DNA from: Candidatus Falkowbacteria bacterium S5_I03
GTDB lineage: Bacteria > Patescibacteriota > Patescibacteriia > Patescibacteriales > UBA12465
Reading direction: 5' to 3'
Length of the DNA: 64,000 nucleotides
Assembly: GCA_019248265.1 (NCBI GenBank)
Contig: JAEHGX010000003.1
Coordinates: 32,617-96,616 of the forward strand
A program made the translations under genes and the position numbers. The stretch's first letter is position 1; the number at the start of each line of letters is the position of its first letter. Below, in pieces: positions 1 through 64,000 of this stretch. The notes beneath the pieces were generated by a model that saw nothing but the letters and a program-made list of their open reading frames with translations, was not told where the DNA came from and did no database searches.

Positions 1-120
1 TTCAATTATGTTGGGATTCAAATCCTAAATCTATGTTAACTTTTGAAGATGATATTAACATTGATCAATTCGAAAAAGAATCAATTCAAAAAATTTATAA
101 TAATGTATCTGGAGCGCCAG

Positions 121-780
121 ATGAAAAATAAACTATATGATTTATATCTAAAATCTCCAGAGTGGAAAGTTATCTCTGATGAATGTAAAAGGTTATCTAA
201 CTTCAAATGTAATAGATGTGATAACACTACTAATCTTCATGCTCATCATTTAACTTATGAAAATATAGGTGAAGAGAAACAAGAAGATTTAGAATGCTTA
301 TGTTTATCATGTCATGAAGAAGAGCATGGTAAAAGCTTTAGTACGATTGTTAAAAAACCTCCATTTATTTTAATTGGAAACGGAAGATATAAAACAAACG
401 AAGGATACAAATCAATGGATGCAATAGACGTAATAAGCAAACTAACTAAAGTTGAAGTAGCAATAGTTCAATATATGAAAAATATATTAATTGATCAACA
501 TCAGTGGAATGTAAACAATCCAACATCTCAGGATAAATATAGAGCTAGTGTTGTGCAAGTTCCAACAATTGAAGCTCTTGCTATGAACTCATATTTAAAA
601 AAAGGAATGGCTAAATCATATAAAAATCTTGTTGACATGAATATACTTATTCGTATCAAACGAAATGTTTATATGATTAATCCAAACTTTATAATTCCAC
701 CAGAGAACTACAAAGAAGCTAATGATGAATGGGAAAAAATAATGAATATTAAAAAGCCAAAACCAGGAGCAGAACAATGA
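121..780 (+). CDS. HNH-motif nuclease fused to a C-terminal putative DNA-binding domain
   Basis: ORF track gives 43..780. I prefer ATG 121 because GGAG lies 7 nt upstream. The motif CNRC...LHAHHLTY...CLSCHEEEH fits the CxxC/HH/CxxCH HNH pattern, and the same module recurs in ORF 62061..62567. The C-terminal segment KRNVYMINPNF resembles ORF 35278..35784. Confidence 0.6.
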   Translation: MKNKLYDLYLKSPEWKVISDECKRLSNFKCNRCDNTTNLHAHHLTYENIGEEKQEDLECLCLSCHEEEHGKSFSTIVKKPPFILIGNGRYKTNEGYKSMDAIDVISKLTKVEVAIVQYMKNILIDQHQWNVNNPTSQDKYRASVVQVPTIEALAMNSYLKKGMAKSYKNLVDMNILIRIKRNVYMINPNFIIPPENYKEANDEWEKIMNIKKPKPGAEQ

Positions 781-1013
781 CACGAGAAGAAACTAAACAA
801 AATCTACATTACGGTTTACAATTTGGAACATTAAAGCCACAAGTTTTTATAGATTCAATATTTGATTATTTTGAAAATAAGAAATGTCCAAACTGTAGAT
901 ATGCTAATCTTGATAGCGCCAGATATCTAGCTATACACAAATGTTCAATGGGTGTATCAGCTATTGATTATGATTTTGGATGCACTTATTGGAAATCAAA
1001 GGATACTAAATGA
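777..1013 (+). CDS. hypothetical small Cys-rich protein
   Basis: ATGA start/stop overlap with the upstream gene. Contains CPNC plus additional Cys/His. Confidence 0.5.
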   Translation: MTREETKQNLHYGLQFGTLKPQVFIDSIFDYFENKKCPNCRYANLDSARYLAIHKCSMGVSAIDYDFGCTYWKSKDTK

Positions 1014-1240
1014 AAGCAATAGAAATTTTAAAAAAGAATGAAATGGTTAAAAAATATGTAGAGCCAAATTATTTGATTAAAGCAATAGAAGAACTTGAAT
1101 CATTAAAATGTTGTCAAAATTGTAAGCATTATTCTATGTTTGATGGAAAAATTGAATGTAAAACATGCTTTGCTATTAATCACACTAATTGGGAAATAAG
1201 ACCAATATCTGGCGCTTTGGGAATTAAAGGAAGACAATGA
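1010..1240 (+). CDS. hypothetical small Cys-rich protein
   Basis: ATGA overlap with neighbours. Contains CCQNC...CKTC motifs. Confidence 0.5.
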   Translation: MKAIEILKKNEMVKKYVEPNYLIKAIEELESLKCCQNCKHYSMFDGKIECKTCFAINHTNWEIRPISGALGIKGRQ

Positions 1241-1689
1241 ATAATTTTAATATAACAGTAAACTCAGAACCTTTTTATCCACCAAATCATTATGGAGCGC
1301 CAGTAGTAATTGTTGATGATATAAAACTAGAACCAAAAACTGTATCAACACAAATTGATGTTCAAGCACCAATGCATGTATTAAAAGATATAGCAGCTAA
1401 ACAGTTAGCTAAAACAATAATTGAATCTATGAGCCACACAAGCATATCAAATCCAAGAGAAAACACTTATTGTGATAGATTTTCATTTACTTATGCAACA
1501 AAAGATCAATTAGATATTATGAGTCAGAAGCTAGATAACAGAACTAAAGATTTATACATTACTCAAAATAAATTAGATTTGGAACAAAGCAAGAATTTAT
1601 ATCTAAATAAACAAATAGATATCAGAAATTATGCACTACTTGGATTGTCTATAATAATAATGTTTCTTTATGCAGTGAGGTATTTATAA
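1237..1689 (+). CDS. hypothetical protein with C-terminal transmembrane helix
   Basis: Overlap-coupled ORF with a hydrophobic C-terminus (LLGLSIIIMFLYAV). Confidence 0.5.
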   Translation: MNNFNITVNSEPFYPPNHYGAPVVIVDDIKLEPKTVSTQIDVQAPMHVLKDIAAKQLAKTIIESMSHTSISNPRENTYCDRFSFTYATKDQLDIMSQKLDNRTKDLYITQNKLDLEQSKNLYLNKQIDIRNYALLGLSIIIMFLYAVRYL

Positions 1690-1934
1690 TGTCAGCAGGT
1701 ATTTTATTAATTTTAATAATAGCTACATTTTTTAACTATTTAATAGTTCGAAAAAATCTAGCTAATAAACGATATGGAAACATTTTAGTTGATATATCTA
1801 TGATATCTGTATTAACTTGGTTCTTTGACGGAACCATAATGGGTATGGCTATTGCAACATCTGTATCTGCAATGATCAGTATTCATTTAATATTTAAACC
1901 TGTTTCAATCAACAAGCGCAAAGGAGCTAAATGA
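1689..1934 (+). CDS. hypothetical membrane protein
   Basis: Hydrophobic segments and overlap coupling with the flanking ORFs. Confidence 0.5.
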   Translation: MSAGILLILIIATFFNYLIVRKNLANKRYGNILVDISMISVLTWFFDGTIMGMAIATSVSAMISIHLIFKPVSINKRKGAK

Positions 1935-2080
1935 TTAAAGATATATTGCTTACAGTTACACTCATACTGGCGCTAGTTTTATTGATACAATTTTGGTATA
2001 TAAGCATGGCTATTTTAGCTATCCTTATTACTTACTTCCTTGCAAAAGGAGTAAACATTATCAAAAGGATATTTAAATGA
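1931..2080 (+). CDS. hypothetical 49-aa membrane peptide (below ORF-track cutoff)
   Basis: Hand translation gives MIKDILLTVTLILALVLLIQFWYISMAILAILITYFLAKGVNIIKRIFK. ATGA overlaps occur at both ends. Confidence 0.4.
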   Translation: MIKDILLTVTLILALVLLIQFWYISMAILAILITYFLAKGVNIIKRIFK

Positions 2081-2256
2081 GCAGAGAACGAAGACCTAGT
2101 AGACATAAAAATTCTCCACTTGAAGATGCTTTAGAAGAAATAGGTAGAAAGACAGTTTCAATAGTCTCATCTAAAGCCAACGACTTAGCACCAAAAATAG
2201 CTAAAAAACTTTCAGCAATAGAGAGACTTTTTTCAAGACAACAGAAGCGCCATTAA
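2077..2256 (+). CDS. hypothetical 59-aa basic protein (below ORF-track cutoff)
   Basis: Hand translation gives MSRERRPSRHKNSPLEDALEEIGRK...SRQQKRH. It is ATGA-coupled, and its stop lies in the loop of the 2245-2267 hairpin. Confidence 0.35.
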   Translation: MSRERRPSRHKNSPLEDALEEIGRKTVSIVSSKANDLAPKIAKKLSAIERLFSRQQKRH

Positions 2257-2267
2257 CTCTGGCGCTT
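2245..2267. terminator. hairpin between convergent genes, built from an inverted pair of the AGCGCCAG-family motif
   Basis: AAGCGCCA-ttaactc-TGGCGCTT gives an 8-bp GC-rich stem and a 7-nt loop. It lies between the end of the + block and the end of the 1446-aa minus-strand gene. The U-tract is weak on both sides. Confidence 0.5.
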
Positions 2268-2288: not shown

Positions 2289-5200
2289 TTATTTAACCAA
2301 CTTTTCATATGCATACTCTGCATAATCTAATCCAGCTGGATAAGCAGCTTTAGTTAATACATCCCAAGGATTATATACTATATTTCCAAGATTCTTTGTA
2401 AACACAGACTGGTCATGAACATCATCTATATCCATAATAGTAGCTTGTCCTAATACAGCTAGCAAGAAGCTTATCGGATGATCAATAACTCCTTTTCTAA
2501 TAACTCTTTGAATCCTAACGAAATACTTCGTAAACATTACTAGCCCAATATCATTCATATACTGTAATAATTTACTATCTGGTGTTCCATACACAATAAA
2601 AGCATCTTTTACTGTATTTAAAGCCACAAACTCTTTTCTATCATAATTGTATTTTTTCTCAATCAGCTCAAACAGTTCACTATATTTAAAATCTTTATCA
2701 TTACCTAATTTTTCACTATTTTCATCAAACAAATCTTTAATAGTTACTCCAATATCTAATAATTCTTTTTCATTTTTAAACTTTCTAATCGAATGCAACT
2801 CTGGAAACTCAACAGGACTCAATCCAAGCTTTCTAATTAATTGATTCATTCTTTTAAAATCTTTTTCAGTAGGTTTATTTTGCTCAGCTCTTTTCTTTAA
2901 TGATTCATGTAACGCATATCTAGCAACGAAATCTGAATACTGTGTAGCAGTTGTCATCATTTTAAAGAATCCAGTTCTCTCAGTTACAAACAGGTATTGT
3001 AATCCATTTTTAATAAACTCAGGTTTACCATCAGTTACTTTATCAAACATCTTAGTTATTTTACTATTAGTTTTTAAATCTCCAAGCGTAGCATCTTCTA
3101 CAATTGCTTGATACATCCCAGCATCCATTAAATCTCTAACTGGATTATCTTTTAGATTATTTTCTAATATGTTTATTTTTTCTATATCTAATTTAGTAAT
3201 ATTTCCAGCATCTCTAGCAATCTTTAATTTCTCAAGCTCAGTTTCATCAGCAAGGTACTTTTTAAGCGCTCTGAAGCCATCAACCTGAAGATTCATAACA
3301 TCTATAGGGTTCATTCCCATTTGCACACTAAGCGCCAGATTAGAAACGATATTGCCTATCAATACCTGAGGTGTTTTTATAATAATATTTACTTTTGATA
3401 TTTTTACTACTTCTTTCCACATAATCTCAATTAACCTTATGAAATGTTTTGCAACAGCTGGTAAACTTCTGATAAGCACAGCATCAGCAATACTTGCATC
3501 TCTAAACCCTAAGTAGTTAAACATCATATCTCTTCTTAATGGAATACCTTTTTGAATGTCATCTAACCACTTAGTGTTCTTAGTTGAGTTATTTTTAGCA
3601 TCTGGAATAACAACAAACTTACCTTTTTTATCTTCTCTAACATTTACGCCTCTTTTTCTAGCTTCTTTAAGCACATTAATTTTAATTTCTGTTTTAATTC
3701 TATTTTTAACAGCTGAAGGCAATACATTCCATGATTGTTGGATATCTGGCTCTATACTATTCGGAGTTAAGAATATATATTCTTTTTGATTTAAATCTCC
3801 ATATTTCATAAAGTTTTTATTGTTTTTTCTAGCATCATCAAACAATACATCCAATACTTTATTGTTAAACTCTTTAGTCTGAACCTTATCTTTAATACTA
3901 GCTTCCATTCTGCCTAGTACATACGGCGCTCTAATATCCTGTTTAAGCAACGATCTCTTTCTAGCCTTACTCATTATATACCTATAATTTATAGCAACAC
4001 CTGCTTCATTATATACAGGTAGCAATGGATTATCATCATTCATATCAATAACTGCAGCTTTCATCTGATTTTCTATAATCTTATATGCTTTATCATTTAA
4101 TTTTCTTATATCTAACTCAGCTAATCTTTTTGCTTGTTTTTCATTACCTTTATATCTAACATCTAATATAGTAGTTCCTCTTCTACCCATATCTGTATAT
4201 CTTATACTTGTTCTGTTCATGCTTTGAACCAGGTGATCTTCATTTACATATAATGCCATCTCTTCTTTTGATGTATCGCCTTTATTTTTCTTTAATTTCT
4301 CTACAAGCTTAAATCCTAGTTTTTCTTTTTCTTTTTGCTCACTAACTGGCGCTACTTCTACTGTAACATCAGCATCGAATATCTCTTTTGTATATCCTTT
4401 TATTTCATTAAATGATGTATCTATTTCATTTCCATCTGTATCTTTTTTTGTAAACAATTCTTTTCTTGATTTCTCAACAAAGCTTCTATGTATAGCAGCT
4501 ACATTTCTAACCCCAACTGGATCTTTTTCAATCAATCCTCTTAATACTTCAATCTGACTAAAATCTGTATATTTTAAAGCTTCTAGTGTTGCTAGCTTGT
4601 CGATTCTCTTAATTGATGCTTTTGAAGCTTCTATAGGATTTGGAGCATTAAACATATTACCTATATTTCTTGCATTCAACAACTGAGCTTCATTTGTAGC
4701 CATATGCGTAGCCATATAAAACCCTAATCCTGCAGCTTGTGATACATAATAGTTTCCTATGGCTTTATCTTCATTCTTCCATATCTCTAATCTGGCGCTT
4801 TCAATCTCAGCCTGAATAGCTTCTTGACTAGCTAATAGTTTTTTCATTCTATCAAGACCAAAATCTTCATATATAGAACTTAAATCTGTATCCAAAAGCG
4901 CCAGTGTTAATGCTTCTTCTTGTTCAAATGTTAACTTTTTTTCAAACCCATTTACAACCAAACTTCCTATAATCTGAGCCTCATGCTCTCTTGTTCTATC
5001 TATGCTTCCACTTGCTAATGTGAAGTTCTCCAATGTTCTTTCAAGCTCATCTTTATCTCTAAATCCTCTAACTAATGATTGAAAAAAACCTTCAGGCTTT
5101 AATCTTGCAACTTCACTTAATACATTCTCAAAAGCAGGTCTTCTGTCACTGTCATTTAAAAACACATATGCGTTCCTAGCAAACCACTTAGCTCTTGTAA

Positions 5201-6629
5201 ACTTACTTGCACCCTCTGGAGGTCTTCCAATCTCATCTTTTAATGATGTGTCAAATCTTTTTATGAATCTACTTATACTATCGTTCAGGTATGTTATTCC
5301 ATCTCCTGTTAATCTCATTAGGTTTTTTCTCTTTTGGATAATAGCTGCATTATTTGCTTTACCTAGCTCTAGCGCCAGTTTTAGAAGTATCTGGTCAGCT
5401 CTAACATCTTTATCTTCTTTTCTAGCAAACTGCATCACATAGTTAAACAATTTCTCAACTATTGCAATCAATCCATTGAAAAATCCTTTTTCTTTAATCT
5501 CTGGATCTTTATATACTTTTATTTCACTCAATCTTTTTATCATAGCTTCATTTGTTAATCCTAAAGCTATGAACTCACTTAATCCTACTTCTGGATCACT
5601 TATGTAATCAAATCTTTCTTTTGCTAATCTATACTCTTCTTTTGTTCCATATTTGCTTTTAACATCCAAGAAATCTTCAACTTTTAATTCTTTTAATACA
5701 TCTTCTCTAACTTTTTGAAGCCTTAATATTGTTCTTGCTACATCTCCACCTTTATTCTGCTTTGCATACTCTGTTGCCGCATGTATAATCTCATGCACAT
5801 ATGCCTCGGCTGCACTCATTGCATTTCTTTCAGGTCTATATTTATTTGAAGCTCCTACATATATTCCTTTGTTGTAACCATCTAATTCTATATATCCACC
5901 GTTACTTTCAGCTTTTTTATTCAGATACACATTCATCTCAGGTATGAAGTCTTTCCCTGCTCCAATAAACATATCTATTACTTTTGATAGATTCTTTTTG
6001 TGTTCAGCGCTAACTTCAACTGGATCATATGCATACAATTCGTCCATGAATTCTTTCATCTTTTCAGGATCTTTAATCAAGTCATCATTTTGTTTTTCAA
6101 AATCTTTTCTATCGTTTTCATATTTGAATCCATTTTCTGAACCTAATCCTCTAAAATCTTTATCTAGTTCTACATAATTATCAACTACTTTATCTATGCC
6201 AATAAGACCATTTATTCTAGCGCCAGTTTCAGATTTTCCATTGTTTAGCACATACACATTCCTAGCTTCACCATCTCTTTTTCTCTTAGCTACAACCTCT
6301 ATATCTCCATTTTTTAAGTACTTAATTGAATCTATAGTCTCAACATACTTTCTTCCACTGTTTTCAACCACAAGCTCATTACCTTCACTAAATAGATACT
6401 TATTCATTGCAAATGTTTTAGCTTCATCATACTTTTCTTTAGCTCTTTCATTTCTATCAGCTACTTCACTTATCTCTGAAGCTATTGACTCATCCAAATC
6501 TTTACTTCGTTCTTCGTTATACCACTGCTTAATCTCAGCCACAGCAGCATCTAACTCTTCACCTTTGTACTTTGCTTCTAAACCTTTTATTATCTCATTT
6601 AGCTCTTCGCTAGGTAGTTTACATGCCAT
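2289..6629 (-). CDS. giant (1,446 aa) putative virion/ejection protein with an HExxH zincin-like motif
   Basis: Long ORF immediately downstream of the vRNAP gene. HEIIH lies at 5781-5795 in the context YVHEIIHAATEYAKQNKG, which is paralogous to two modules in the vRNAP C-terminus. Confidence 0.6.
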   Translation of the reverse strand: MACKLPSEELNEIIKGLEAKYKGEELDAAVAEIKQWYNEERSKDLDESIASEISEVADRNERAKEKYDEAKTFAMNKYLFSEGNELVVENSGRKYVETIDSIKYLKNGDIEVVAKRKRDGEARNVYVLNNGKSETGARINGLIGIDKVVDNYVELDKDFRGLGSENGFKYENDRKDFEKQNDDLIKDPEKMKEFMDELYAYDPVEVSAEHKKNLSKVIDMFIGAGKDFIPEMNVYLNKKAESNGGYIELDGYNKGIYVGASNKYRPERNAMSAAEAYVHEIIHAATEYAKQNKGGDVARTILRLQKVREDVLKELKVEDFLDVKSKYGTKEEYRLAKERFDYISDPEVGLSEFIALGLTNEAMIKRLSEIKVYKDPEIKEKGFFNGLIAIVEKLFNYVMQFARKEDKDVRADQILLKLALELGKANNAAIIQKRKNLMRLTGDGITYLNDSISRFIKRFDTSLKDEIGRPPEGASKFTRAKWFARNAYVFLNDSDRRPAFENVLSEVARLKPEGFFQSLVRGFRDKDELERTLENFTLASGSIDRTREHEAQIIGSLVVNGFEKKLTFEQEEALTLALLDTDLSSIYEDFGLDRMKKLLASQEAIQAEIESARLEIWKNEDKAIGNYYVSQAAGLGFYMATHMATNEAQLLNARNIGNMFNAPNPIEASKASIKRIDKLATLEALKYTDFSQIEVLRGLIEKDPVGVRNVAAIHRSFVEKSRKELFTKKDTDGNEIDTSFNEIKGYTKEIFDADVTVEVAPVSEQKEKEKLGFKLVEKLKKNKGDTSKEEMALYVNEDHLVQSMNRTSIRYTDMGRRGTTILDVRYKGNEKQAKRLAELDIRKLNDKAYKIIENQMKAAVIDMNDDNPLLPVYNEAGVAINYRYIMSKARKRSLLKQDIRAPYVLGRMEASIKDKVQTKEFNNKVLDVLFDDARKNNKNFMKYGDLNQKEYIFLTPNSIEPDIQQSWNVLPSAVKNRIKTEIKINVLKEARKRGVNVREDKKGKFVVIPDAKNNSTKNTKWLDDIQKGIPLRRDMMFNYLGFRDASIADAVLIRSLPAVAKHFIRLIEIMWKEVVKISKVNIIIKTPQVLIGNIVSNLALSVQMGMNPIDVMNLQVDGFRALKKYLADETELEKLKIARDAGNITKLDIEKINILENNLKDNPVRDLMDAGMYQAIVEDATLGDLKTNSKITKMFDKVTDGKPEFIKNGLQYLFVTERTGFFKMMTTATQYSDFVARYALHESLKKRAEQNKPTEKDFKRMNQLIRKLGLSPVEFPELHSIRKFKNEKELLDIGVTIKDLFDENSEKLGNDKDFKYSELFELIEKKYNYDRKEFVALNTVKDAFIVYGTPDSKLLQYMNDIGLVMFTKYFVRIQRVIRKGVIDHPISFLLAVLGQATIMDIDDVHDQSVFTKNLGNIVYNPWDVLTKAAYPAGLDYAEYAYEKLVK

Positions 6630-6657: not shown

Positions 6658-9600
6658 CTATCGACACTCTTCTTTATTTTTTAACATTATATCTTTTGCT
6701 TGCATAATATCTTCTTCGTTTATTGTTTTATATATTTTTTTATTAAGTTCAACTTCTTTATCTGGCGCTTTGTTAGATATATACTCTTTTCCATCTTTAT
6801 TAGCTTCCACAGCAGTTTTGAAGCTATCAAGCAAGTATTTATGCATATTTAACTTATCTTCTTTTGTAGATAATCCTAGAGCTTCTACAACCATGTCAAT
6901 TATCTTCTCAAACATACTTTTCTCAGCGCCAGTTATTAGATTACCTTCAACATCTATTTTCATTAAATCTTTAATTAGTTCTGGCTTACTTAATGCTTCA
7001 GCTAAGAATTCATCTACATCTTTAGCCCAATATGATTTATTAGTTGTAAACATCTCAGGATTAGCTTCAGCAGCTTGCTTAACCACTTCATATAGTCTAG
7101 TCATCTCTTCGCTATATGTTTTACCTTTTTCACTTCTCATATAGTTATAAACAGCAGCATGAACACTCTCATGTAACTTAGTTGTGAAATCTATATTTCT
7201 TTTATTTACTTCATCTATTATCATGTTTATTTGAGTTGATGCAGCCTTAATATCCAAAGCGCCAGTGTCTTGGTTTACTTGCTCAATTGATAACATTTTC
7301 ATCATCTCTTTATCATTTCTCAATCCATCAAAATCTGCTATCGTAACAACATTATCTTTCCAATCATAATTCCCAGCAATACCTTCACCAGTAAAGAAGT
7401 CATATGCTAATTGTTTACTGTAGTTCATTTCAAACTTAACATTATCTTGAATATACTCTAATAATTTAGCATTTTCTTTTTCAATATTCTCATCTTTTTT
7501 ATATTGTTCTAATACTTGCTGAACACTATTAACTTTTGTATCATTAACAGCATTTTCTTTTGCAACATATCCATTTAACTCTAATACTATCTCTAGCGCA
7601 TCAGTCAATGCACTTTTTGAACCATCATCTTGATCAACAAATCTCAATATTGCTTTAAACAGATTTTTAACATCTTCAAATAAACTTTTATTAGATGATA
7701 CACTTTCAAATCCAGATAAAAACTCTTGAAAAGATGGATTACTTATTGCTTCAGCTACAAATTCATATGCTTCACCTTTTTTATCAGATAATCCATATTG
7801 TTTTCTTTGCTCAACTGTAGAATTTTTATAAACATAATTTCTTAATTCATTAGCTTTTTTATCTAATGCTTTATTTTGTTTCATTGCATAAACAGTTATC
7901 GCATGAGCATATTCATGAAGCATAACTCTTTGTGTATTTTCAATTCCAAAATCTTTAGTTGATGGAAATGTTAATAGTTTTTTACCAGATGTATAAGCAC
8001 TATGCATACCATATCCATCAACTTCTTTATCTTGCTTAAACACAATTGTTATTGGATTGAACTTAATACCATTTTTACCAAACATTTCAAATAATCCATC
8101 TATATATTTAGATTCTTTAGCATCAATATTTTTACTTTTAGTCATATCTGCATATTCAGAAGCCAATTGTTTAAATTCTTCATATGTTTTAATTTCTTTT
8201 TGATATGGACTATTTTTAGATGCAGGATTTTTAAACTGAATTTTTCCATTTTTTAATCCATTTAGCATACTTGTTTCTGATACTATTTCAACAGGCTTAG
8301 TCTCTTTTTTTACAGATTCTTTCTTATCTGGCGCTTTGATAGTTAATTTAGTTCTATCTTCAGGCTCAACAACTTTACCGCCTTTAATTTCATACATACT
8401 TCCATCTAATCCAGCCATATGTCCAATCTTAGCATTAGATCCATATACTAATTTTCTACCGCTTTCAGCTACTTCATTTAACTCTCTCATTTCATCTAAT
8501 ATTGAATCAAATCTCTTAACTGGTTTGTTTTTTCCTGAACGCAAACCTTCAAGCTTATCTAAATCAACTCCAAGCTTTTTGGCATTATCTCTAACCCTTT
8601 CTAATGATTTTAAAATCTCTTTAGCTAAGCTATAATCTTTAGATATTTCATATACATCTTTGTTGTATTTAATAATTTCATCTTGAGCATTATTTATTCC
8701 AGTAAGCTTAGCATCATGCACTCCAAGAACTCCACCTTCTTCTAATGATTTAGTCATAGCTGAACCATCTATATAGTGAATTGGCACAACAGCTCCAGCA
8801 CTTATTGCAGCTTGAAACTCTCTAATCATTGACTGAACTGTTAATGTTTTTTGACCACCAAACTTATCAGGATTTACATGCGTCTGAGTAGGTCCATATC
8901 CACTTTTTGCATTTGTTAATCCAGTTGAGAATATAGCAACAGTTTCACCATCTTCCATATAGTTTTCACCAGCCAATGGAGCCTTAATCATAGGGAATAA
9001 TACTTTTAGTTCATCTAATATTTTATTTTCTTGATCAGCTGTCAATCCTTTTCCACCACTTACTTTTTCAACTCTAGCATCATATGCAACTTTCCAAGCT
9101 TGAAACATTATTTTGAATGAGTTATTGATTCTATTGTTAGCCTCTATAAGCTCTCCAAACTCTGCAGTTAATATCTGTTCAACATTTGATCCATATGTCA
9201 TCTCCACAATCTCTCTAAGTTTACCAGCTATAGCTACTTTACCAGATTTAACTTTCATTTCCTTACCAGTTTTATCTTTAACTGTTACATAATTATTTAT
9301 TTGAATATCTTCAAAAGCTGTATTTTTTAATGTTTCTTTAAATGCTTTAATCTCTTTCTCTTCTAACTCTTTACCATGAATGCTATTTATAAACTTATTA
9401 GCTTTCTTAACCGCTTCAGGAGACGAATCATCAAGCATCATCTTAGGTAATCCAGATATCATTTTATACCCAAGATGTCTTTTAATCGACTTAATAGCAG
9501 CTGCATATCCAAATGTCATAAACGGATCTTTAAACAATGACCTACCTTCGCTTGTAACAATATCTATAATCTCTGTTTTTAATCTATCTTCACCATCTTC

Positions 9601-20371: not shown

Positions 20372-20372
20372 T

Positions 20373-33697: not shown

Positions 33698-33744
33698 TTT
33701 CTAAAGCGCCAGGTTGAAAGTAAACCATGACGCTATGATTTTAT

Positions 33745-50187: not shown

Positions 50188-50379
50188 ATGAACATCTCAA
50201 TAACTCTAACTACTGGCGCTCACTTTGAGTATAACAATGCTGAAACAATAAAAACATCTGCAACCCAAACAGTTATATCTTCATCTGAATCAACACTTGC
50301 AATACTAGATAATGAATCTATCGAAAAGATGGAAATATCTGCATCACATAAATGTGTTAATTTTAGTTCTAGGATTTAG
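50188..50379 (+). CDS. hypothetical 63-aa protein
   Basis: An internal ATG of ORF-track entry 49966..50379 is preceded by AAGGA. The upstream part of the track ORF is low-complexity and overlaps a minus-strand gene. Confidence 0.4.
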   Translation: MNISITLTTGAHFEYNNAETIKTSATQTVISSSESTLAILDNESIEKMEISASHKCVNFSSRI

Positions 50380-52950: not shown

Positions 52951-53072
52951 CCACACTCTCTAGCCACACTTCAACCACACAAGAAACGCATATAATGTTT
53001 AAACATATAATGTTTCACATGAAACAAAGCGCCAGTATCAAGAAACCACACTTGCTTACGCCATTTCCACAC
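52951..53072 (+). promoter_or_regulatory. repeat-rich putative early promoter/operator region
   Basis: CCACAC occurs 5 times in one orientation (52951, 52964, 52975, 53046, 53067). CATATAATGTTT occurs in tandem (52989-53000 and 53004-53015), each copy with a perfect TATAAT. Confidence 0.45.
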
Positions 53073-53212
53073 TTTCTCTTTCTCCTCTTTATTCTTCTCC
53101 TCATTTAATACTTTCCTTTTATGGAATGGCAAAATCTAGATTAATAGATAAAGCGCCAGTAAGAGGTGTCAAATAGACAACAAAAAAATAAAATTAAAAC
53201 AAGGAATGAAAG

Positions 53213-53518: not shown

Positions 53519-53611
53519 TCATAGGCTAAGGCTAATCTAAGAGCGCCAGCAAGATAGGAAGATAGGCAAGAAACCATAGATAAACCAAATTTAAAATAAG
53601 GAAATAATATA

Positions 53612-54034
53612 ATGACAACTAATTACGCAAAGATAGTAGCATCAGAACTAATAAAACAAGGAGCAATCCTTGTAGGCTCGCAAACATTAATTGAATCATC
53701 AACAGCAGACATTGACATCGCATGCACATGGGAACAATATGTATCTGTACTTGAATCAAAGCCAATAATGCATAAAGAAGGAAGATATGTAGAATCACAT
53801 AAAAATAACTACATCAAAAACAACAATACTCTATGGAATGGTGTAGAATCATTAGCGTTTAACGATGATACAAGACTTGATATATTGTTCTATGATGAAG
53901 AAATATTACCAGCAGTAGCAACAACAATCAAAATGATGCAATCTCAGTCAAACATGTTCATATCAAACAAAGAACTTAGAGTTAGAACATATGAAGCATT
54001 AGTTAAAACAATTCACTTGTATAGCGCCAGATAA
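53612..54034 (+). CDS. minimal Pol-beta-superfamily nucleotidyltransferase-like protein (MNT-like, 140 aa)
   Basis: LVGSQTLIESSTADIDIA fits the hG[GS]-x9-13-Dh[DE]h signature (G22 S23 ... D33 x D35, at 53675-53719). Confidence 0.45.
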   Translation: MTTNYAKIVASELIKQGAILVGSQTLIESSTADIDIACTWEQYVSVLESKPIMHKEGRYVESHKNNYIKNNNTLWNGVESLAFNDDTRLDILFYDEEILPAVATTIKMMQSQSNMFISNKELRVRTYEALVKTIHLYSAR

Positions 54035-54530: not shown

Positions 54531-54728
54531 ATGTGTACTAAACCATTAGACCAAAGAACTGTAGCTTATCTTAAAAAACAACAACAATTAACAATGAACA
54601 GCAAATGTATAGTTGAACCATTCAAGACATCAACATCTACAATTAATCAAATTAAAGATGCATTATCAGCTATTGAATCACCTTCATTAGCGCCAGTAAT
54701 TAATAAATCTAGAACATCAAAATATTAA
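54531..54728 (+). CDS. hypothetical 65-aa protein
   Basis: ORF tightly packed after the previous stop. Confidence 0.45.
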   Translation: MCTKPLDQRTVAYLKKQQQLTMNSKCIVEPFKTSTSTINQIKDALSAIESPSLAPVINKSRTSKY

Positions 54729-55165: not shown

Positions 55166-55897
55166 ATGGCAAAAGAATTAGTATCAATGAATGAAGTAGC
55201 AGTAGATGCAAAAGTATCAAAAGCTAAAACAGTTAAAGCACCCAAAGAAACTAAAGTTAAGGAAGTTAAAATGACAGCATTAGAAAAGAAAATCGCAGAG
55301 AGAATGTTAGCTAAAGAACAAGCTAGAACAGCTAAAGATGAAGTGTTAGCAAATAATGAAACATATGTTGATTATCTTGTTGATAAAAAGATAGAAAACA
55401 ACAATGTAGTGCATTTGGATGTAATCATCAATCAAATCAATGCAATGAAAACAATCTTAGCTCAAGATGGAACTAAATTCGCTATCCATTGTTATCCAGT
55501 TGCAGAATCAATCTTTGGTGCAGTAGGTTCAAGATTGTTAGCTATTGCACAAATAGCTGGCGCTATGTTCACAAGCGAGAGACAAGCTGAATTCACAGCT
55601 TTAACAGGTATTGACTATCTTATTGCACTTGATGCATATCACAAATTAGGTAGACCAGCATACTTCAGCAAACAAATGACTTTAGTTGATGAATTACCAT
55701 TCCAAGAAGGTTATGATATTCCATTAATGGCAGTAGCTGCAGCATTAGGTTTAGACACAGATGAAGCAAAACTTATCACAGATGCTAAATTAACTAACCA
55801 CTTCAGCGCCAGTAGAAAGAAAGCTCAAACTAAACTAGATGAGTACAACAGAACACCAGTTAATGCAGAAGATTCGGCATTTACTATGGAAGATTAA
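55166..55897 (+). CDS. hypothetical 243-aa protein upstream of the small RNAP
   Basis: ORF with an AAGGA RBS and a Lys-rich N-terminus. No motif recognised. Confidence 0.55.
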   Translation: MAKELVSMNEVAVDAKVSKAKTVKAPKETKVKEVKMTALEKKIAERMLAKEQARTAKDEVLANNETYVDYLVDKKIENNNVVHLDVIINQINAMKTILAQDGTKFAIHCYPVAESIFGAVGSRLLAIAQIAGAMFTSERQAEFTALTGIDYLIALDAYHKLGRPAYFSKQMTLVDELPFQEGYDIPLMAVAAALGLDTDEAKLITDAKLTNHFSASRKKAQTKLDEYNRTPVNAEDSAFTMED

Positions 55898-55960: not shown

Positions 55961-57820
55961 ATGACAACAAAAGAACGAATAGCTTACCAAATTAGCTTAG
56001 GAAAGTTATCTATGCCTAGAATAAACAATCTTGAATCTAAGTTTGGATCAACAGTGTACAAAGAGATAGAAGCAATGTTTGAAGCAATGTTTCATACATA
56101 TCTAAAGAAAGGTGCTCATATCAAACCTAATGTAGAGCCAGCACACACAGTTGCAATGCCATATTGGGCTAAGCGAATCAAAAACCCAAAAGCTCATAAT
56201 CTGGCGCTTAAGGTACTATCTAAGAATAACTGGATAGTAGTATCAACAAGACCAGGTAACAATTGGTCATCTGCATATTTAAATGAAGCAAAATTATTAG
56301 AATATGTTACTAGAGAAGTACTTGATAATGTAAGAATGCATAATAAATTCTTTGATTATAAGCTATCTAATACTGTATCTGTATCAAGCACTAAAGTTAC
56401 TCAAAATGGTAATAAACTTGACTCAGGTTTAATCAGAAATGGATTTATGAAAACAGGTAATACAGAGTTTGCATTCAATACAAACCAAATCAACGAGAAC
56501 TTTGAAGATGTACTAAAAGAAATCAACAAAGGTATCGAGAAAATGATAGTTAAATATCCTCAAATCGCTACAGACCACGCTAATTATAGAGAACTAGGTA
56601 CAGAAATTCTTCAGTATCTATCAATAGAAGACGCAACTTATACTTCAGGAGAAAGAGCATCAGACTTCAGAGGTAGAAACATAGCTGGTATGCTGTCTAG
56701 AATAGGTAATCCAATAGGCTTTAAAGTTATGAGAAGCATGTTAGTTATACCTGAACAATACAGAAATATAGCTACAGATAAAGGTTTAAGAAACAAGCAT
56801 CTATTCATAGCTGAATTATGTGGATTCAAAGTAGGAACAACATTTCAGAAAGTTGCATTTGGAATCAAATGTTATACTCAAAGAACAATGACTCATTGCT
56901 TTGTAGAGAATTTATGGCTGGAAAACACTTACGAAGACATAGATAACTACTACAATAATGTAGGTACATACAAATGGAAATTTGCCATTGAAATAGATGT
57001 AAGCGCCAGTGTATTAGCAGTGATAGGACTATTATTAAATCACAAACCATTTATGGAAAGATGTAATGTTTTACCAGGTATTCTAGGTGATGCATGGGGT
57101 CATGAAATAATTACTAATAGACCTCAGTGCAAAACAATCATGCGAAAAATTTATGGATCTCAAATGACAGCTGCAGCAATGTGGACTGAAATGGATATTG
57201 AATTCACTCAGCAAGAAGTTGAAGCATTTGACTATGATGTTGAATTCGGAGAGTTTGCAGTAGCTAATAGACTTAAAGACTTCATTATAGACAATTCAGT
57301 TATGAAACCATCTATGTCAGTTAGAGTAGGTTCTGAGACGGTTAAATTCAATTGTAATAAGTTCCATATCGTTGGAGACAAAACAACTGTTTATGACTTA
57401 TATGACTCATATAATGACTCAATTAGAAGAATTCACAATACAAGTACAGTTAAAGTTCCAGACCTTAAATCATTCAAAAGAGTTGGTCCAACTACATTAG
57501 TTCATGGACTAGATTCGCAGTGCGCAGATAACACAGCTGATGCAGTAATAAACCAATACAACTGGTGCTTAGACATTCATGATGCATTTATATTGTGTGC
57601 AGAAGCAGCAGACTATGCAAGAGAGATATACAGTTATGGTAGAACACCAAACGAACCATCATTGAAGTTCATTAATGATAATAGAACATCAATCTTATGT
57701 AATTTCTTCACAGATATGGGTATCGGAGCATCTAAAGTAGCAGAGTTCAAAAGAGAGGTTCTAGCATTCGTAGAACCACTAACAGAGAAACTAGTAATTA
57801 ATCCACTAGTTTTAAAATAA
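55961..57820 (+). CDS. compact T7-like single-subunit RNA polymerase (619 aa; N4 RNAPII-like role)
   Basis: DFRGR lies at D235 (56663-56677). Motif A is AIEIDVSAS (D346, 56996-56998). Motif B is RPQCKTIMRKIYGS, spaced R-x3-K-x6-YG. Motif C is LDIHDAFIL (57578-57583). Confidence 0.75.
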   Translation: MTTKERIAYQISLGKLSMPRINNLESKFGSTVYKEIEAMFEAMFHTYLKKGAHIKPNVEPAHTVAMPYWAKRIKNPKAHNLALKVLSKNNWIVVSTRPGNNWSSAYLNEAKLLEYVTREVLDNVRMHNKFFDYKLSNTVSVSSTKVTQNGNKLDSGLIRNGFMKTGNTEFAFNTNQINENFEDVLKEINKGIEKMIVKYPQIATDHANYRELGTEILQYLSIEDATYTSGERASDFRGRNIAGMLSRIGNPIGFKVMRSMLVIPEQYRNIATDKGLRNKHLFIAELCGFKVGTTFQKVAFGIKCYTQRTMTHCFVENLWLENTYEDIDNYYNNVGTYKWKFAIEIDVSASVLAVIGLLLNHKPFMERCNVLPGILGDAWGHEIITNRPQCKTIMRKIYGSQMTAAAMWTEMDIEFTQQEVEAFDYDVEFGEFAVANRLKDFIIDNSVMKPSMSVRVGSETVKFNCNKFHIVGDKTTVYDLYDSYNDSIRRIHNTSTVKVPDLKSFKRVGPTTLVHGLDSQCADNTADAVINQYNWCLDIHDAFILCAEAADYAREIYSYGRTPNEPSLKFINDNRTSILCNFFTDMGIGASKVAEFKREVLAFVEPLTEKLVINPLVLK

Positions 57821-58439: not shown

Positions 58440-58634
58440 ATGAATTACAAGTTACTTTACGAAATTGAAAAAGAAGAAAACGAAAAACTTCAAAAGAAAA
58501 TCAGAGAATTAACTATAGACAATGAGCTATATAAAATTAGACTCAAAAACGCTAAAGAAACTACCTATAAAGCGCCAGATAGAAAAGAATCTAAAGCATC
58601 TATAACTATTCAACAATTAAATATATACTGTTAG
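58440..58634 (+). CDS. hypothetical 64-aa protein
   Basis: ORF with a TAAGGA RBS. Confidence 0.5.
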   Translation: MNYKLLYEIEKEENEKLQKKIRELTIDNELYKIRLKNAKETTYKAPDRKESKASITIQQLNIYC

Positions 58635-60249: not shown

Positions 60250-60381
60250 ATGTCAAGAGAAGAAATAGATCAAATATTACTAGAAGCAGAAATAAACGAT
60301 GAAGATTACTCATTCTCATCAGCGCCAGATGTAATATATCTGGATGAATCATTAGCAACTAGAACAAACCTAGGAGAATAG
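60250..60381 (+). CDS. hypothetical 43-aa acidic peptide (below ORF-track cutoff)
   Basis: Hand translation gives MSREEIDQILLEAEINDEDYSFSSAPDVIYLDESLATRTNLGE. It has an AAGGA RBS and fills the gap between neighbouring genes. Confidence 0.35.
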   Translation: MSREEIDQILLEAEINDEDYSFSSAPDVIYLDESLATRTNLGE

Positions 60382-60675: not shown

Positions 60676-61257
60676 ATGAAATCAATTGAATTAACACAAT
60701 CTCAAATTAAAGCACTACAGTCTGGCGCTACTATGTTTATACTTCCTATATCGGATTATGATTTAAACATAATAAATAAAGGATATTCAATAGGTGATTC
60801 ATTTCCTATTAATAAAGGTAATAAAGATATATTTGTAAAAGAAGAGTTTATGGAAGTATTAGACCGAAGACCTGAAACAAAAGGAGAAAAATACTACTTT
60901 TACAAATCAGAATATAGACAAGAAGATTATCATATATCACCAAGCTATAATGTATGGGATAGTTTAGAAAATGAATTTGATAAACATATTGCAGCGTCAC
61001 AAATGACAAAAGAACAATCAAGATATTCATTCAAAGAGTGTATTGATGTTAGGATTGTTAGAGTGCAGGATATACTAATAAGCGATTGCGAAAAGATACT
61101 AAACATTTATAGTGCATACTTTAATGTTACTAACCCAAAAATTAGAACTGCAATAATTAACAAATTTAAAGCTTATTATAACCAACAAATGAAGGAACTA
61201 AACATAGATAGAACTTATGAAGATAATGATTATGTATTTTTAGCAGAATTTGCTTAA
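60676..61257 (+). CDS. hypothetical 193-aa protein
   Basis: ORF with a GAGGAA RBS. Confidence 0.55.
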   Translation: MKSIELTQSQIKALQSGATMFILPISDYDLNIINKGYSIGDSFPINKGNKDIFVKEEFMEVLDRRPETKGEKYYFYKSEYRQEDYHISPSYNVWDSLENEFDKHIAASQMTKEQSRYSFKECIDVRIVRVQDILISDCEKILNIYSAYFNVTNPKIRTAIINKFKAYYNQQMKELNIDRTYEDNDYVFLAEFA

Positions 61258-62061: not shown

Positions 62062-62567
62062 TGGAACTTATATACGCAATACTAGCTTTAGTAGCCTATA
62101 TCTGGTTCACAGCTCCAAGAATAAGAGACATTGATGAGCTTAAATCTAAATCAAAAGATCCATTTAAAAACTTCACAGTAGAAGACTTTATCCAAGCAGC
62201 TAAAGAAGTGGATGATCAAGACACTTCAAAACCTATAAAACCAGCTAAAGTCTCAAGACCAGAAGCTCCAGACTATACAAGCATACTACTATCAAGCAAT
62301 TCAATTGATGATATTACAGCTTACTATATGCGCCAAGCAAACGATAAGAATTTATACTTTACATATATCAATGAATCTCCAAACTGGCGCTTAAAGAGAG
62401 AAACTAGATTCAACATCGACAAAGGCATCTGTCAAAGCTGCGGTAAGACAATCTACCTTAATAGCTTCCATTGTCACCACATAGCATACAACACACTCTT
62501 TAACGAAGACATGCAAGACTTAGTATCACTATGTTGGTCATGCCATCAAGAAGAGCACAATAATTAA
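62061..62567 (+). CDS. membrane-anchored HNH-motif protein
   Basis: I prefer ATG 62061 (the track starts at 62043). It has an N-terminal TM helix. The C-terminal CQSCGK...FHCHHIAY...LCWSCHQEEH is the same module as in ORF 121..780. Confidence 0.6.
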   Translation: MELIYAILALVAYIWFTAPRIRDIDELKSKSKDPFKNFTVEDFIQAAKEVDDQDTSKPIKPAKVSRPEAPDYTSILLSSNSIDDITAYYMRQANDKNLYFTYINESPNWRLKRETRFNIDKGICQSCGKTIYLNSFHCHHIAYNTLFNEDMQDLVSLCWSCHQEEHNN

Positions 62568-62579
62568 AAGGAATAAACA

Positions 62580-62870
62580 TTGGAAACAATAATAAACCCA
62601 AAAAACAAATATCAAAAAGTTATAATCACTAAAAAAACTTGTATCGTATGTGGTAAAGAAAAATCAGCCAATAGCTTCTATGACCATTACTCTTCAGCTG
62701 ATGGAAAAGCCAACGAATGCAAGAAATGTAAAATACTTCTTGATAAAGAGTATTATCGTGTTAAAAAAGAAGAGAAAGATATACTTCTTAAACAATCTAT
62801 ATCAAGACCTCTAACTGATAAAGAAAACCAATTCATAGCTGATTTCATAGCTAAAAGGAGCTCGCAATGA
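62580..62870 (+). CDS. hypothetical zinc-ribbon protein (96 aa, TTG start)
   Basis: Contains CIVCGK...CKKC. AAGGA lies 8 nt upstream of the TTG start. Confidence 0.45.
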   Translation: METIINPKNKYQKVIITKKTCIVCGKEKSANSFYDHYSSADGKANECKKCKILLDKEYYRVKKEEKDILLKQSISRPLTDKENQFIADFIAKRSSQ

Positions 62871-63313
62871 ATGAAGATAGACTAACATACGATGAATTAT
62901 TGCAATTTAATTATGAAATGATTAAAGATAAAAAAGAGTTTGATGAAGAATTAAGAAGTCGTATAGCTAAGCAAAGAATGATAATAGTTGGAACACCATC
63001 ATTTGATTCATCTGAATTTGAAAAAGTCTTCCAAAGCGCCAGAGATGAAGGATGCGGAATAGCAATATTTAAACCATCACAAGAAGATGGAATTCATATT
63101 GAACAAATTAACAACGAAAATATATTCTTTGGAATATCAAGATCATCATTTGAACCAATGATATATCAAGATGACTTAGCTTATCAATTAGATGAAGAAT
63201 ATAAAGAAAAGCAAGAATATAAAGAATTTGTAATAAATAAATTAATAAAACCACCAAAAAAGAAAAAAACATTTCAAGAAAAATTTGGATATTTAAAAAG
63301 AAAATTTAGATAA
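62867..63313 (+). CDS. hypothetical 148-aa protein
   Basis: ATGA overlap with the upstream gene and an AGGAG RBS. Confidence 0.55.
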   Translation: MNEDRLTYDELLQFNYEMIKDKKEFDEELRSRIAKQRMIIVGTPSFDSSEFEKVFQSARDEGCGIAIFKPSQEDGIHIEQINNENIFFGISRSSFEPMIYQDDLAYQLDEEYKEKQEYKEFVINKLIKPPKKKKTFQEKFGYLKRKFR

Positions 63314-63323
63314 GGAACTCGCA

Positions 63324-63722
63324 ATGAAAGCTAAACAGTTTGAAAAGAAACACGAGCTAGGAAAAAACAATGGATACTATTATAAGAGAATCTGGAAGCA
63401 TTTATTCACTGAATCAGATCCACATAACTACTACAACGCATCTCAGTATCTAACCTATGTTCACAAGCTTAGAAACCTAGTAGCTGATACATTAACTGAT
63501 AAAAACCCTATAGACATCTACGAGTTTTTCGGAGGAGTTAACAAACCTGAAACATGTCATCAATACATTAGAAAGCTTTATATGGTTCAAGAAAAAAATG
63601 CACTAAGACAAACAGTAATATCAAGACATGAAAAAATACTTCAGAAATTTAATGTAGATTATCAAAATATATTACCTAAATTTAAAGGATTAACAGATGA
63701 TAACATCAAAAACAACATATGA
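63324..63722 (+). CDS. hypothetical 132-aa protein
   Basis: ORF with a TAAGGA RBS. Confidence 0.55.
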   Translation: MKAKQFEKKHELGKNNGYYYKRIWKHLFTESDPHNYYNASQYLTYVHKLRNLVADTLTDKNPIDIYEFFGGVNKPETCHQYIRKLYMVQEKNALRQTVISRHEKILQKFNVDYQNILPKFKGLTDDNIKNNI

Positions 63723-63957
63723 AACATCAGATGGTAAATCTTTTGAAACAAAATATGAAGCTGAAATACATGAAGAATCGTTAGAAAACGGAACATACAT
63801 TTTTGTAATAGCAAAGCAATATTATAACTCATATAGCATGTCAATAATTTTTGCATCAGATAGTTATTCTAAAATTTTAAATAAAAAAAAAGAATTAGAA
63901 GATAATAATTTAACAGAAAATTATTCATATTCAATACAAAAAGTAATAAAAATATAA
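63697..63957 (+). CDS. hypothetical 86-aa protein
   Basis: ORF overlapping the upstream gene by 26 nt. Confidence 0.45.
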   Translation: MITSKTTYETSDGKSFETKYEAEIHEESLENGTYIFVIAKQYYNSYSMSIIFASDSYSKILNKKKELEDNNLTENYSYSIQKVIKI

Positions 63958-63968
63958 AAGGATAAAAA

Positions 63969-64000
63969 ATGGGATTATATGTAGAACCAGGTAAAAACAA
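63969..64000 (+). CDS. 5' end of a further gene, truncated by the window edge
   Basis: AAAGGA is followed by ATG 63969 (MGLYVEPGKN...). Confidence 0.35.
   Translation, partial: MGLYVEPGKN

Follow-up and report, generated by a model that had tools for sequence, protein, structure and literature searches.

The phage and its octamer

The stretch of DNA analysed here (hereafter, the window), 64 kb in length and deposited as part of an assembly named Candidatus Falkowbacteria bacterium S5_I03, contains many copies of one octamer, AGCGCCAG (in reverse complement, CTGGCGCT). Together with the eight C-free bases on its 3' side, this octamer is a genome-wide, DNA-level recognition word kept by selection in a single clade of N4-like phages that are large and low in G+C. 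Judging by its genes, the window belongs to a distant N4-like phage of ~111 kb and 31% G+C, in agreement with the earlier note on this DNA: there are matches to PHROG and Pfam, and the best portal matches are N4-like phages, with an identity of 34% at best to any GenBank phage. At the nucleotide level, a 12-kb piece had no match among the GenBank phages. The longest public contig of the phage measures 111,207 nt. Late genes lie on the minus strand (2.3-52 kb), and early and middle genes on the plus strand, both from 52.5 kb and at the left edge of the window. Shine-Dalgarno sites are present, and no tRNA genes were found in the phage sequence. A UvrD-type superfamily 1 (SF1) helicase, closest to the Alteromonas AD45 podoviruses (100-104 kb), is encoded as well. 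The main landmarks are the following:

2289-6629 and 6658-15462, minus strand: N4-type virion RNA polymerase (vRNAP; PHROG/Pfam), in two adjacent open reading frames (ORFs) of 1446 and 2934 aa instead of one giant gene.
26472-27839: major capsid protein gene (PHROG/Pfam).
30133-32439: portal gene (PHROG/Pfam).
44800-48999, minus strand: large terminase (1399 aa), split by an intein that includes a LAGLIDADG homing-endonuclease domain; the octamer is scarce here.

An exact search found 84 copies of AGCGCCAG in the window, 45 on the plus strand and 39 on the minus strand, the same numbers that the earlier note had reached by hand. Of the positions given there, 80 are right and four are corrected below. 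Coordinates are window positions from the exact search; AGAGCCAG is a one-letter variant that serves as the word of sister lineages, and L-numbers denote related or identical contigs:

AGCGCCAG, plus strand: 113..120, 915..922, 1296..1303, 3331..3338, 4897..4904, 5371..5378, 6219..6226, 6925..6932, 7258..7265, 10168..10175, 10811..10818, 12079..12086, 12799..12806, 13159..13166, 14086..14093, 15422..15429, 16978..16985, 18893..18900, 19494..19501, 28519..28526, 29795..29802, 32915..32922, 33705..33712, 35982..35989, 37232..37239, 38043..38050, 38514..38521, 46285..46292, 49122..49129, 50643..50650, 54689..54696, 55805..55812, 57002..57009, 58571..58578, 60321..60328, 63035..63042.
AGCGCCAG, minus strand: 1209..1216, 1967..1974, 4346..4353, 4792..4799, 6762..6769, 8328..8335, 9621..9628, 11265..11272, 12429..12436, 17280..17287, 19107..19114, 26049..26056, 30070..30077, 35259..35266, 36570..36577, 36637..36644, 37335..37342, 37494..37501, 42721..42728, 43784..43791, 47991..47998, 48978..48985, 50213..50220, 55557..55564, 56201..56208, 60722..60729.
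15776..15783, minus strand: AGCGCCAG, previously placed at 15777.
16908..16915, plus strand: AGCGCCAG, previously placed at 16918.
24076..24083, minus strand: AGCGCCAG, previously placed at 24077.
62384..62391, minus strand: AGCGCCAG, previously placed at 62394; the sole copy in the Trp-Arg frame.
36224..36231, minus strand: AGCGCCAG, the sole copy in the Lys-Arg-Gln frame.
30154..30161, plus strand: AGCGCCAG in the portal gene; L001-L003 carry CTGGCTCT 3 nt away.
31478..31485, minus strand: AGCGCCAG in the portal gene; missing in the 93%-identical L004.
32373..32380, minus strand: AGCGCCAG in the portal gene; aligned with AGAGCCAG in L001-L003.
52079..52086, minus strand: AGCGCCAG in the divergent intergenic region, facing minus-strand genes.
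52446..52470, minus strand: pair of direct copies of AGCGCCAG (52446 and 52463), 9 nt apart, in the divergent intergenic region, facing minus-strand genes.
53028..53035, plus strand: intergenic AGCGCCAG in the same direction as the plus-strand genes.
53152..53159, plus strand: AGCGCCAG, 61 nt upstream of the ATG at 53213.
53542..53549, plus strand: AGCGCCAG, 70 nt upstream of the ATG at 53612.
54023..54030, plus strand: AGCGCCAG, 24 nt upstream of the ATG at 54047.
2246..2266: hairpin AGCGCCA-N7-TGGCGCT between convergent plus- and minus-strand gene blocks, made of the exact copy 2259-2266 (minus strand) and a one-mismatch copy at 2246; folding free energy (dG) -16.7 and -15.3 kcal/mol, z -4.7 and -3.9.
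26410..26445: terminator-like hairpin that directly follows the major capsid gene and is formed by the copies at 26410 (plus) and 26438 (minus); on the minus strand, a 9-bp stem followed by UUUUG (dG -18.3 kcal/mol, z -3.95); kept in relatives L004 and L028.
20276..20354: intragenic inverted repeat of 13 bp, AGCGCCAGATGA / TCATCTGGCGCT, with copies at 20276 (plus) and 20347 (minus), and AGAGCCAG at 20288.
21678..21756: duplicate of the preceding repeat, with copies at 21678 (plus) and 21749 (minus), and AGAGCCAG at 21690.
3746..3753, minus strand: AGAGCCAG, the sister-lineage variant.
28463..28470, 34326..34333, and 49775..49782, minus strand: AGAGCCAG.
35223..35230 and 56134..56141, plus strand: AGAGCCAG.
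31260..31267, minus strand: AGAGCCAG in the portal gene; specific to the window, with no such word there in relatives.

Neither base composition nor codon usage accounts for this abundance. Dinucleotide-preserving shuffles (n = 100) contained 0.19 copies on average, and 2 at most, versus the 84 real ones; this corresponds to an excess over chance of ~400-fold, on both strands, in line with the several-hundred-fold enrichment that had been suspected. When synonymous codons were shuffled within 45 genes, a procedure that keeps the proteins and the codon usage of each gene, a mean of 1.7 copies (maximum 6) was obtained versus the 61 real copies in those genes. AGCGCCAG is the top-ranked 8-mer of the window, above every A/T-rich word, in DNA with a G+C content of 31.4% (about 30% in the earlier estimate), and it introduces codons which are uncommon in this genome (GCG, GCC, GGC, and CTG). 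As had been remarked beforehand, nearly all the GCGCC pentamers of the window (84 out of 100) are located inside the word, while GCGC outside the octamer is at expectation.

The enrichment extends beyond the window. Flanking DNA taken from public assemblies, which extends the sequence by 18.5 kb to 82.5 kb, brings the total to 103 copies, with a density of ~1.25 per kb (~0.65 per kb per orientation); the whole genome is estimated to hold about 130 sites. One-mismatch variants have at most nine copies each in the window, among them those already known (AGCGCCAT, four copies; AGCGCCGG, 2 + 2; AGCGCCAA, one), and the ratio of perfect to one-mismatch copies is ~2.5:1. In the 82.5-kb sequence, each of the 24 possible one-mismatch variants occurs 0-11 times versus 103 perfect copies and, in consequence, all eight positions of the word are specified, as in the Escherichia coli Chi octamer. 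The word is not its own reverse complement, and the palindromes related to it are not enriched in the window (GGCGCC, 0 copies; AGCGCT, 7 copies).

Two origins were ruled out: (i) an assembly artefact, because independent assemblies contain AGCGCCAG whether or not multiple displacement amplification (MDA) was used; and (ii) a tandem or dispersed repeat family, because the flanks of the different copies are unrelated.

Flank, orientation and lineage history of the word

The word is accompanied by a compositional rule which applies to one strand and to a fixed length. In the 8 nt located 3' of AGCGCCAG, the frequency of C is 3.4% versus 12.5% for sense copies, and 5.9% versus 19% for antisense copies; non-coding copies (n = 21), defined as those outside the list of ORFs of at least 100 aa, have ~3% C in the same positions (5 C in 168 nt, by hand count). 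C is back at background from position +9. On the 5' side, the adjacent 10 nt show a mild depletion of G. The earlier observation that the base directly 3' of the word is nearly always A or T corresponds to 73 of the 84 copies. Since A, G and T alike take the place of the missing C, the rule does not follow a C-to-T mutational pattern. Likewise, the AGAGCCAG copies of relatives have a 3' flank nearly free of C for ~6-8 nt, then fading, with a local preference for -R-G-G-T-T. The C-free 3' flank is present in all classes of copies and shows that the flanking sequence is constrained, which is not the same as an activity; a rule restricted to one strand suggests reading or processing on single-stranded DNA. 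It must be borne in mind that RecBCD cuts 4-6 nt 3' of Chi, and that Chi activity depends on bases 4-7 on the 3' side.

With regard to transcription, the word is indifferent to direction. The coding copies are divided into 31 sense and 32 antisense, and this equality, expected from the first inspection of the sequence, rules out a peptide motif. The interpretation of a DNA-level signal is upheld by the same equality, by the presence of both coding and non-coding copies, and by the outcome of the codon-preserving shuffles. As late-gene copies are not oriented with transcription, an ordinary promoter or RNA signal was ruled out too. The 63 coding copies are read as Ala-Pro (21), [Thr/Ser]-Gly-Ala (20), Leu-Ala-Leu (11), and Ser-Ala-Arg/Ser (9); hence, although all six frames do occur, as had been stated, four of them hold 61 of the 63 copies, and the Lys-Arg-Gln and Trp-Arg frames have a single copy each. 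The two orientations are interleaved (51 runs versus 42.8 expected; runs test, no clustering), and spacing is near-Poisson, with a coefficient of variation of 0.90 versus 0.98 for random placement and a biggest gap of 4.2 kb, so that a regular spacing is unsupported.

Orientation and spacing bear directly on the possibility that the word marks initiation sites. According to this explanation, an N4-type single-subunit RNA polymerase or an N4 gp43-like primase would start chains on the CTGGCGCT strand, the first 8-10 nt of the chain (…AG plus 8 nt) being C-free, and would thereby provide primers, on either strand, for lagging-strand synthesis or for replication that depends on recombination. In length, the C-free stretch matches an initial RNA:DNA hybrid or a bacterial primer, and its abrupt end at +9 is suggestive; one site per ~1.5 kb per strand is on the scale of Okazaki fragments; and N4-type polymerases use single-stranded templates. 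Moreover, in a small trend noted by manual inspection, the truly intergenic copies of the early block are all oriented like the genes and precede start codons by 24-70 nt. Single-base promoter dialects which co-evolve with a specificity loop are classic among T7-like polymerases, and the N4 vRNAP is genetically required for N4 replication. In contrast, no orientation bias or switch is observed over 64-82 kb, where per-bin counts are mixed and lack the lagging-strand pattern of primase sites; spacing is no more regular than random, with gaps of up to 7.8 kb on a single strand; half of the late-gene copies are antisense; known primases recognise trinucleotides; and the primase encoded by relatives is a conventional one of the N4 gp43 type. 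As for vRNAP promoters, these are hairpins of the template strand, with a 5-7-bp stem and a 3-nt loop, and number a few per genome, in the early region; here most copies have no inverted partner, the few hairpins have loops of 7-20 nt, and copies are found throughout the late genes, which argues against such promoters. All in all, initiation sites are an unlikely explanation.

The presence of the word varies with the distance to the window lineage, as follows:

L004, portal 93% identical to that of the window: AGCGCCAG, 8 copies in 6.2 kb.
L028, portal 82% identical to that of the window: AGCGCCAG, 5 copies in 7.6 kb.
L313, assigned to the window lineage by a shared contig: AGCGCCAG, 25 copies in 21.5 kb.
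L001-L003 and L005, portal 68-72%: no AGCGCCAG; the top 8-mer is AGAGCCAG, 25 copies in 26 kb.
L026 and L027, portal 50-52%: AGAGCCAG at ~0.4 per kb.
L029, L435, L436, L006-L015 and Alteromonas phage AD45-P1, portal identity lower or not comparable: no over-represented octamer.

L004, L028 and L313 are independent non-MDA assemblies. The lineage of L313 was inferred from an 89,332-nt contig (Logan ERR13598993) which carries protein P0174, also found on a 111,029-nt contig with portal P0026, a member of the 90%-identity cluster of the window portal. The enrichment is therefore found in the closest relatives, at a portal identity of at least 82%, where the earlier note would have taken its absence as a refutation. 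In a neighbour-joining tree of portals, the two word-carrying clades are adjacent and the wordless clades lie beyond them. The simplest history compatible with this tree would be a single origin of AGAGCCAG, followed by a switch from A to C at position 3 within the window lineage. AGAGCCAG still has nine copies in the window versus 0.5 expected; for the two that can be placed in alignments, the positions are not inherited. GCGC is absent altogether from L026, L027 and L029 (L027 also lacks GATC), so a GCGC-containing word was probably feasible only in the window lineage. The window itself strongly avoids GGCC (0 versus 39 expected), CGCG (0), CCGG (6) and ACGT (11 versus 233 in the 82.5-kb extension). 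The differences in word avoidance among relatives point to different restriction pressures in their hosts. A restriction-site logic for AGCGCCAG itself was ruled out, since its enrichment is the opposite of the avoidance seen for GGCC, CGCG and CCGG.

Individual sites turn over rapidly while their density is kept. In codon alignments, a few sites keep their position with the letter switched (32373 and 30154 in the portal gene), and most are not conserved. L004, with 88% nucleotide identity, keeps 6 of 8 window sites (48% for random 8-mers), and L028, with 79%, keeps 3 of 9 (24% for random 8-mers). Site 31478 reads TCAGCTAG in the 93%-identical relative, which differs from AGCGCCAG by 4 clustered changes, all synonymous. 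Given that conservation is only modestly above random and density is maintained, the comparison indicates that many interchangeable sites, each under weak selection, uphold the density. Certain regions stay free of the word: the capsid gene has no copy in any of the genomes compared, and a 3.7-kb homing-endonuclease cluster (L018 173-3909) has 0 octamers where ~4.6 are expected. Within 20 kb around the portal gene, no gene was found whose presence tracks that of the word.

High turnover, the change of the word with the lineage, and gains that need several clustered changes, such as the four at 31478, could also be produced by a non-adaptive drive, that is, biased repair or gene conversion tied to a methyltransferase/endonuclease pair. 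Such a drive, which would generate a word devoid of function, has been proposed for very-short-patch repair and for the highly iterated palindrome 1 (HIP1, GCGATCGC) of cyanobacteria, an octamer which, like AGCGCCAG, is found ~1 time per kb in all contexts and has lineage variants. But HIP1 is a palindrome tied to methyltransferases, while the phage word is asymmetric and has a directional flank. In addition, a 400-fold excess with all eight positions fixed goes far beyond known repair biases; the flank is not of C-to-T type, as A, G and T alike replace C; the word contains a CpG in a genome strongly depleted of it (577 CpG versus 1573 expected); and no methyltransferase was seen in 82 kb of the ~111-kb genome. 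Such a drive is thus highly improbable.

Candidate mechanisms and known systems

A specified asymmetric word with a directional flank, selected at the DNA level and inherited by lineage, requires a specific trans-acting factor, one of high specificity which distinguishes the strands. Whether such a factor is encoded by the host or by the phage is, in our assessment, roughly even. The phage is present, at 100% identity, in at least 15 of 31 assemblies of the Candidate Phyla Radiation (CPR) (whole-genome shotgun prefixes JAEHGI to JAEHHK; GCA_0192480xx-GCA_0192485xx, PRJNA664701), and it is the largest or second-largest contig of some of them; one of these assemblies, found with a portal profile, is titled 'Candidatus Shapirobacteria bacterium S2_F12'. 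The source study reported 27 single-cell and 4 co-assembled CPR genomes, from 15 taxa and several phyla, of a winery wastewater lagoon, and makes no mention of phage (Wiegand et al., 2021; PMC8241940). These CPR assemblies carry unflagged viral DNA. Since its presence in half of the wells, across phyla, cannot reflect a specific infection of all those cells, the lead to a CPR host is weak, and a confident assignment of the phage to a CPR host was rejected. An exact 47-mer of the phage is absent from species-representative genomes.

In the MDA assemblies, 3 of ~23 true contig ends are flush with the octamer (L019, L022, and L311), and 3 of ~9 inverted-chimera junctions fall on it (L024:92-104, L310:12040-12055 and 12185-12190), both far above chance. 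The simplest explanation is template switching by phi29 polymerase at the best G+C-rich microhomology. In any case, the frequent chimeras and contig breaks caused by the word in MDA assemblies are a warning for single-cell genomics.

The same ends and junctions, as indirect and ambiguous evidence, can be invoked for nick sites made by a phage endonuclease. In phages such as T5 and BF23, tf and Rembedalsseter, and the phiKMV-like phages, nick motifs are the only documented phage-autonomous, clade-specific words which are enriched in and out of genes and in any frame. The motif WACTRTGAC occurs 13 times in 45 kb, on one strand, and is conserved in 61 phages, including phages of little nucleotide identity (PMC11780129). 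The phage studied here encodes at least six HNH or homing-type endonucleases, one of which would be the nicking enzyme, acting here on both strands. Nonetheless, known nick motifs are restricted to one strand, with ~0.1-0.3 sites per kb and from a few (~4) to ~14 per genome, whereas 45 plus and 39 minus copies of AGCGCCAG are found in the window, at 1.25 per kb and ~130 per genome, some of them 17-28 nt apart on opposite strands. Furthermore, contigs end on either side of the word (…CTGGCGCT, …CTGGCGCTA, and …AGCGCCAG), which fits template switching better than one fixed nick position, and ordinary metagenome contigs do not stop at it. Nicking is, consequently, a doubtful explanation. Of the alternatives proposed beforehand, T5-like nicks and primase sites are each deprived of one expected property, namely one-strand restriction and orientation bias, respectively.

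The best statistical resemblance is with the DNA uptake sequences (DUS) and uptake signal sequences (USS) of bacteria. According to this explanation, a competent host would prefer DNA that bears the word, and imported fragments of related phages would recombine with replicating phage genomes; alternatively, the phage would merely mirror a hyper-abundant word of its host. The likeness, already pointed out in the earlier note, holds for many properties: (i) a density of ~1 per kb, here ~1.25; (ii) equal orientations; (iii) random spacing; (iv) the use of a subset of permissive frames; (v) one- or two-letter dialects between related lineages, as between AGCGCCAG and AGAGCCAG; (vi) a perfect to one-mismatch ratio of ~2.5:1; (vii) fast turnover at a kept density; and (viii) occasional inverted pairs forming hairpins. 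Concerning the latter, the notion that inverted pairs act as terminators could apply to just two places in the window, the hairpins at gene ends (26410-26445 and 2246-2266), besides which there is one duplicated inverted repeat inside a gene. Homing-endonuclease genes, probably recent arrivals, lack the word. Single-cell assemblies of CPR bacteria contain the phage (PMC8241940); throughout the CPR, com genes are conserved, and Saccharibacteria are naturally transformable (PMC10633639).

On the other hand, the C-free 8-nt 3' flank is no known property of DUS or USS: USS flanks are A/T-rich, and a sharp 'no C' rule on one strand is foreign to double-stranded recognition by an uptake receptor. 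DUS and USS reside in bacterial chromosomes, in contrast to this uncultured, virulent-type N4-like phage, and the mechanism would need both a competent host and a route into such a phage. Known uptake sequences are limited to two bacterial families, and no virulent-type phage is known to carry them at a density equal to or higher than that of its host. The CPR lead is weakened by the distribution of the identical phage over at least 15 of the 31 assemblies, across several phyla (PMC8241940), and the term 'uptake sequence' is absent from the paper on natural competence in Saccharibacteria (PMC10633639). Similarly, a literature search on CPR and uptake-sequence terms returned no such term among the matches listed. 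An uptake-like role, which we rank second, is still an unlikely candidate.

Tentatively, and well short of an even chance, we regard a Chi-like signal as the most likely single mechanism. A helicase-nuclease would track along single-stranded DNA and meet the octamer from its 3' side; upon recognition, degradation would give way to sparing and recombination of the DNA. The enzyme might be a host RecBCD/AddAB-type complex or the UvrD-type helicase of the phage, working with a nuclease. Interleaved copies in both orientations would protect the phage DNA against entry of the enzyme at either side of an end or break, and a ratio of 45:39, with near-Poisson spacing and no transcription bias, is what protection from either entry direction needs. 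The specificity of the factor would depend on the lineage, AGAGCCAG being ancestral and position 3 having changed from A to C in the window sublineage. The composition rule of fixed length on one strand fits an enzyme that reads or cuts one strand. The PD-(D/E)XK nuclease and the Sak4 annealing protein carried by cultured cousins are also in favour. Like the known Chi sites (RecBCD, GCTGGTGG; AddAB, AGCGG, GAAGCGG, and GCGCGTG), which have 5-8 nt, the word is asymmetric, G+C-rich and apparently read on one strand; it comes with a constrained 3' flank, its specificity varies with the taxon, and a direct benefit to linear phage DNA is plausible.

Several points weigh against a Chi-like signal. 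That any cell has AGCGCCAG as its Chi is a supposition. Its density, ~0.65 per kb per orientation, is several times that of chromosomal Chi octamers. Known Chi sites are G-rich on the active strand, and the phage word, with 3 G and 3 C, is not. The ancestral AGAGCCAG lacks the GCG core of AddAB Chi sites, and no RecB-family nuclease was seen in 82 kb of the ~111-kb genome. A Chi-like signal is only slightly ahead, as the results also fit uptake-like, priming and nicking roles.

If the factor were encoded by the phage, a prospect to which we give somewhat less than an even chance, the word would constitute a virus-autonomous, genome-wide self-tag on both strands, co-evolving with that factor. 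Its possible roles include serving as the Chi of the phage's own helicase-nuclease, so that host DNA is destroyed for nucleotides and the phage's own DNA is spared, or providing dense priming or nicking sites. In such a case, the tag would have been kept as AGAGCCAG across portals ~50% identical, and the A3 to C3 switch would have replaced ~130 sites near-completely.

In general terms, DUS/USS, Chi, HIP1 and phage nick motifs are the company in which this phenomenon should be placed, although it departs from each of them in at least one defining respect. The stoperators and dispersed repressor operators of temperate phages (mycobacteriophage L5, P1 C1) are also asymmetric, distributed genome-wide, including the inside of genes, and read by a phage protein; but they number 15-36 per genome, have 13-17 bp and are oriented with transcription, in contrast to ~130 unoriented sites. 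A full-text literature search for either octamer together with 'bacteriophage' gave no match, nor did a literature search for the accession numbers, and it seems that no such word has previously been reported in viruses of this type. The following aspects are new: (i) the 3' flank rule, with the mild depletion of G on the 5' side; (ii) Poisson-like spacing, random orientation and four-frame use; (iii) lineage variants; (iv) site turnover; and (v) wordless homing-endonuclease and capsid genes. A metagenome scan yielded no A+T-rich contig dense in AGCGCCAG among the matches listed. Scans for inverted pairs in unrelated phages and cellular contigs gave, among the matches listed, only ordinary terminator hairpins and G+C-rich phages whose excess is codon-driven, a weak negative.

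Few genomic words are hyper-abundant; the chief cases are DUS/USS, Chi and HIP1, and each of them exposed a machine for DNA handling. If the factor is that of the host, the word would point to a low-G+C bacterium with an uptake or Chi system of a new sort, and would provide a signature linking phages to that host; if it is that of the phage, viruses would have a novel type of self-marking, priming or nicking system. The sharp flank rule narrows the mechanism, and public single-cell and metagenome data already hold the phage. The sister lineages with AGAGCCAG and AGCGCCAG are natural before/after genomes, in which correlated changes could expose the factor.

Other features of the phage genome

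Upstream of window position 1 (L018:426-5646), four homing-endonuclease genes (HNH, NUMOD, I-HmuI-like and endonuclease-VII-like) surround the UvrD-type helicase gene. Two more HNH genes, of PHROG families 119 and 144, are located at window positions 121-780 and 62043-62567.

Pfam matches on the same genes in other assemblies identify a candidate anti-defence gene of the Anti-Pycsar Apyc1/MBL-fold type (32957-33697, minus strand), as well as two lysins, Amidase_2 (32534-32956, minus strand) and CHAP (36170-36769, minus strand). Two such cell-wall hydrolases are more typical of phages of monoderm hosts.

The inverted repeats at 20276..20354 and 21678..21756 belong to a 1.4-kb tandem duplication (19943-21107 and 21345-22509) of two genes (142 aa and 244 aa), each copy with the same octamer pair and one AGAGCCAG. 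Assemblies L307, L308 and L310 of the same phage have a single copy of this unit, owing either to a variable copy number or to a collapse or expansion in one of the assemblies.

Finally, strand asymmetry is very strong over the late-gene block: between positions 2001 and 52000, the plus strand has a GC skew of ~-0.12 to -0.38 and an AT skew of ~-0.07 to -0.27, the coding strand being purine-rich.

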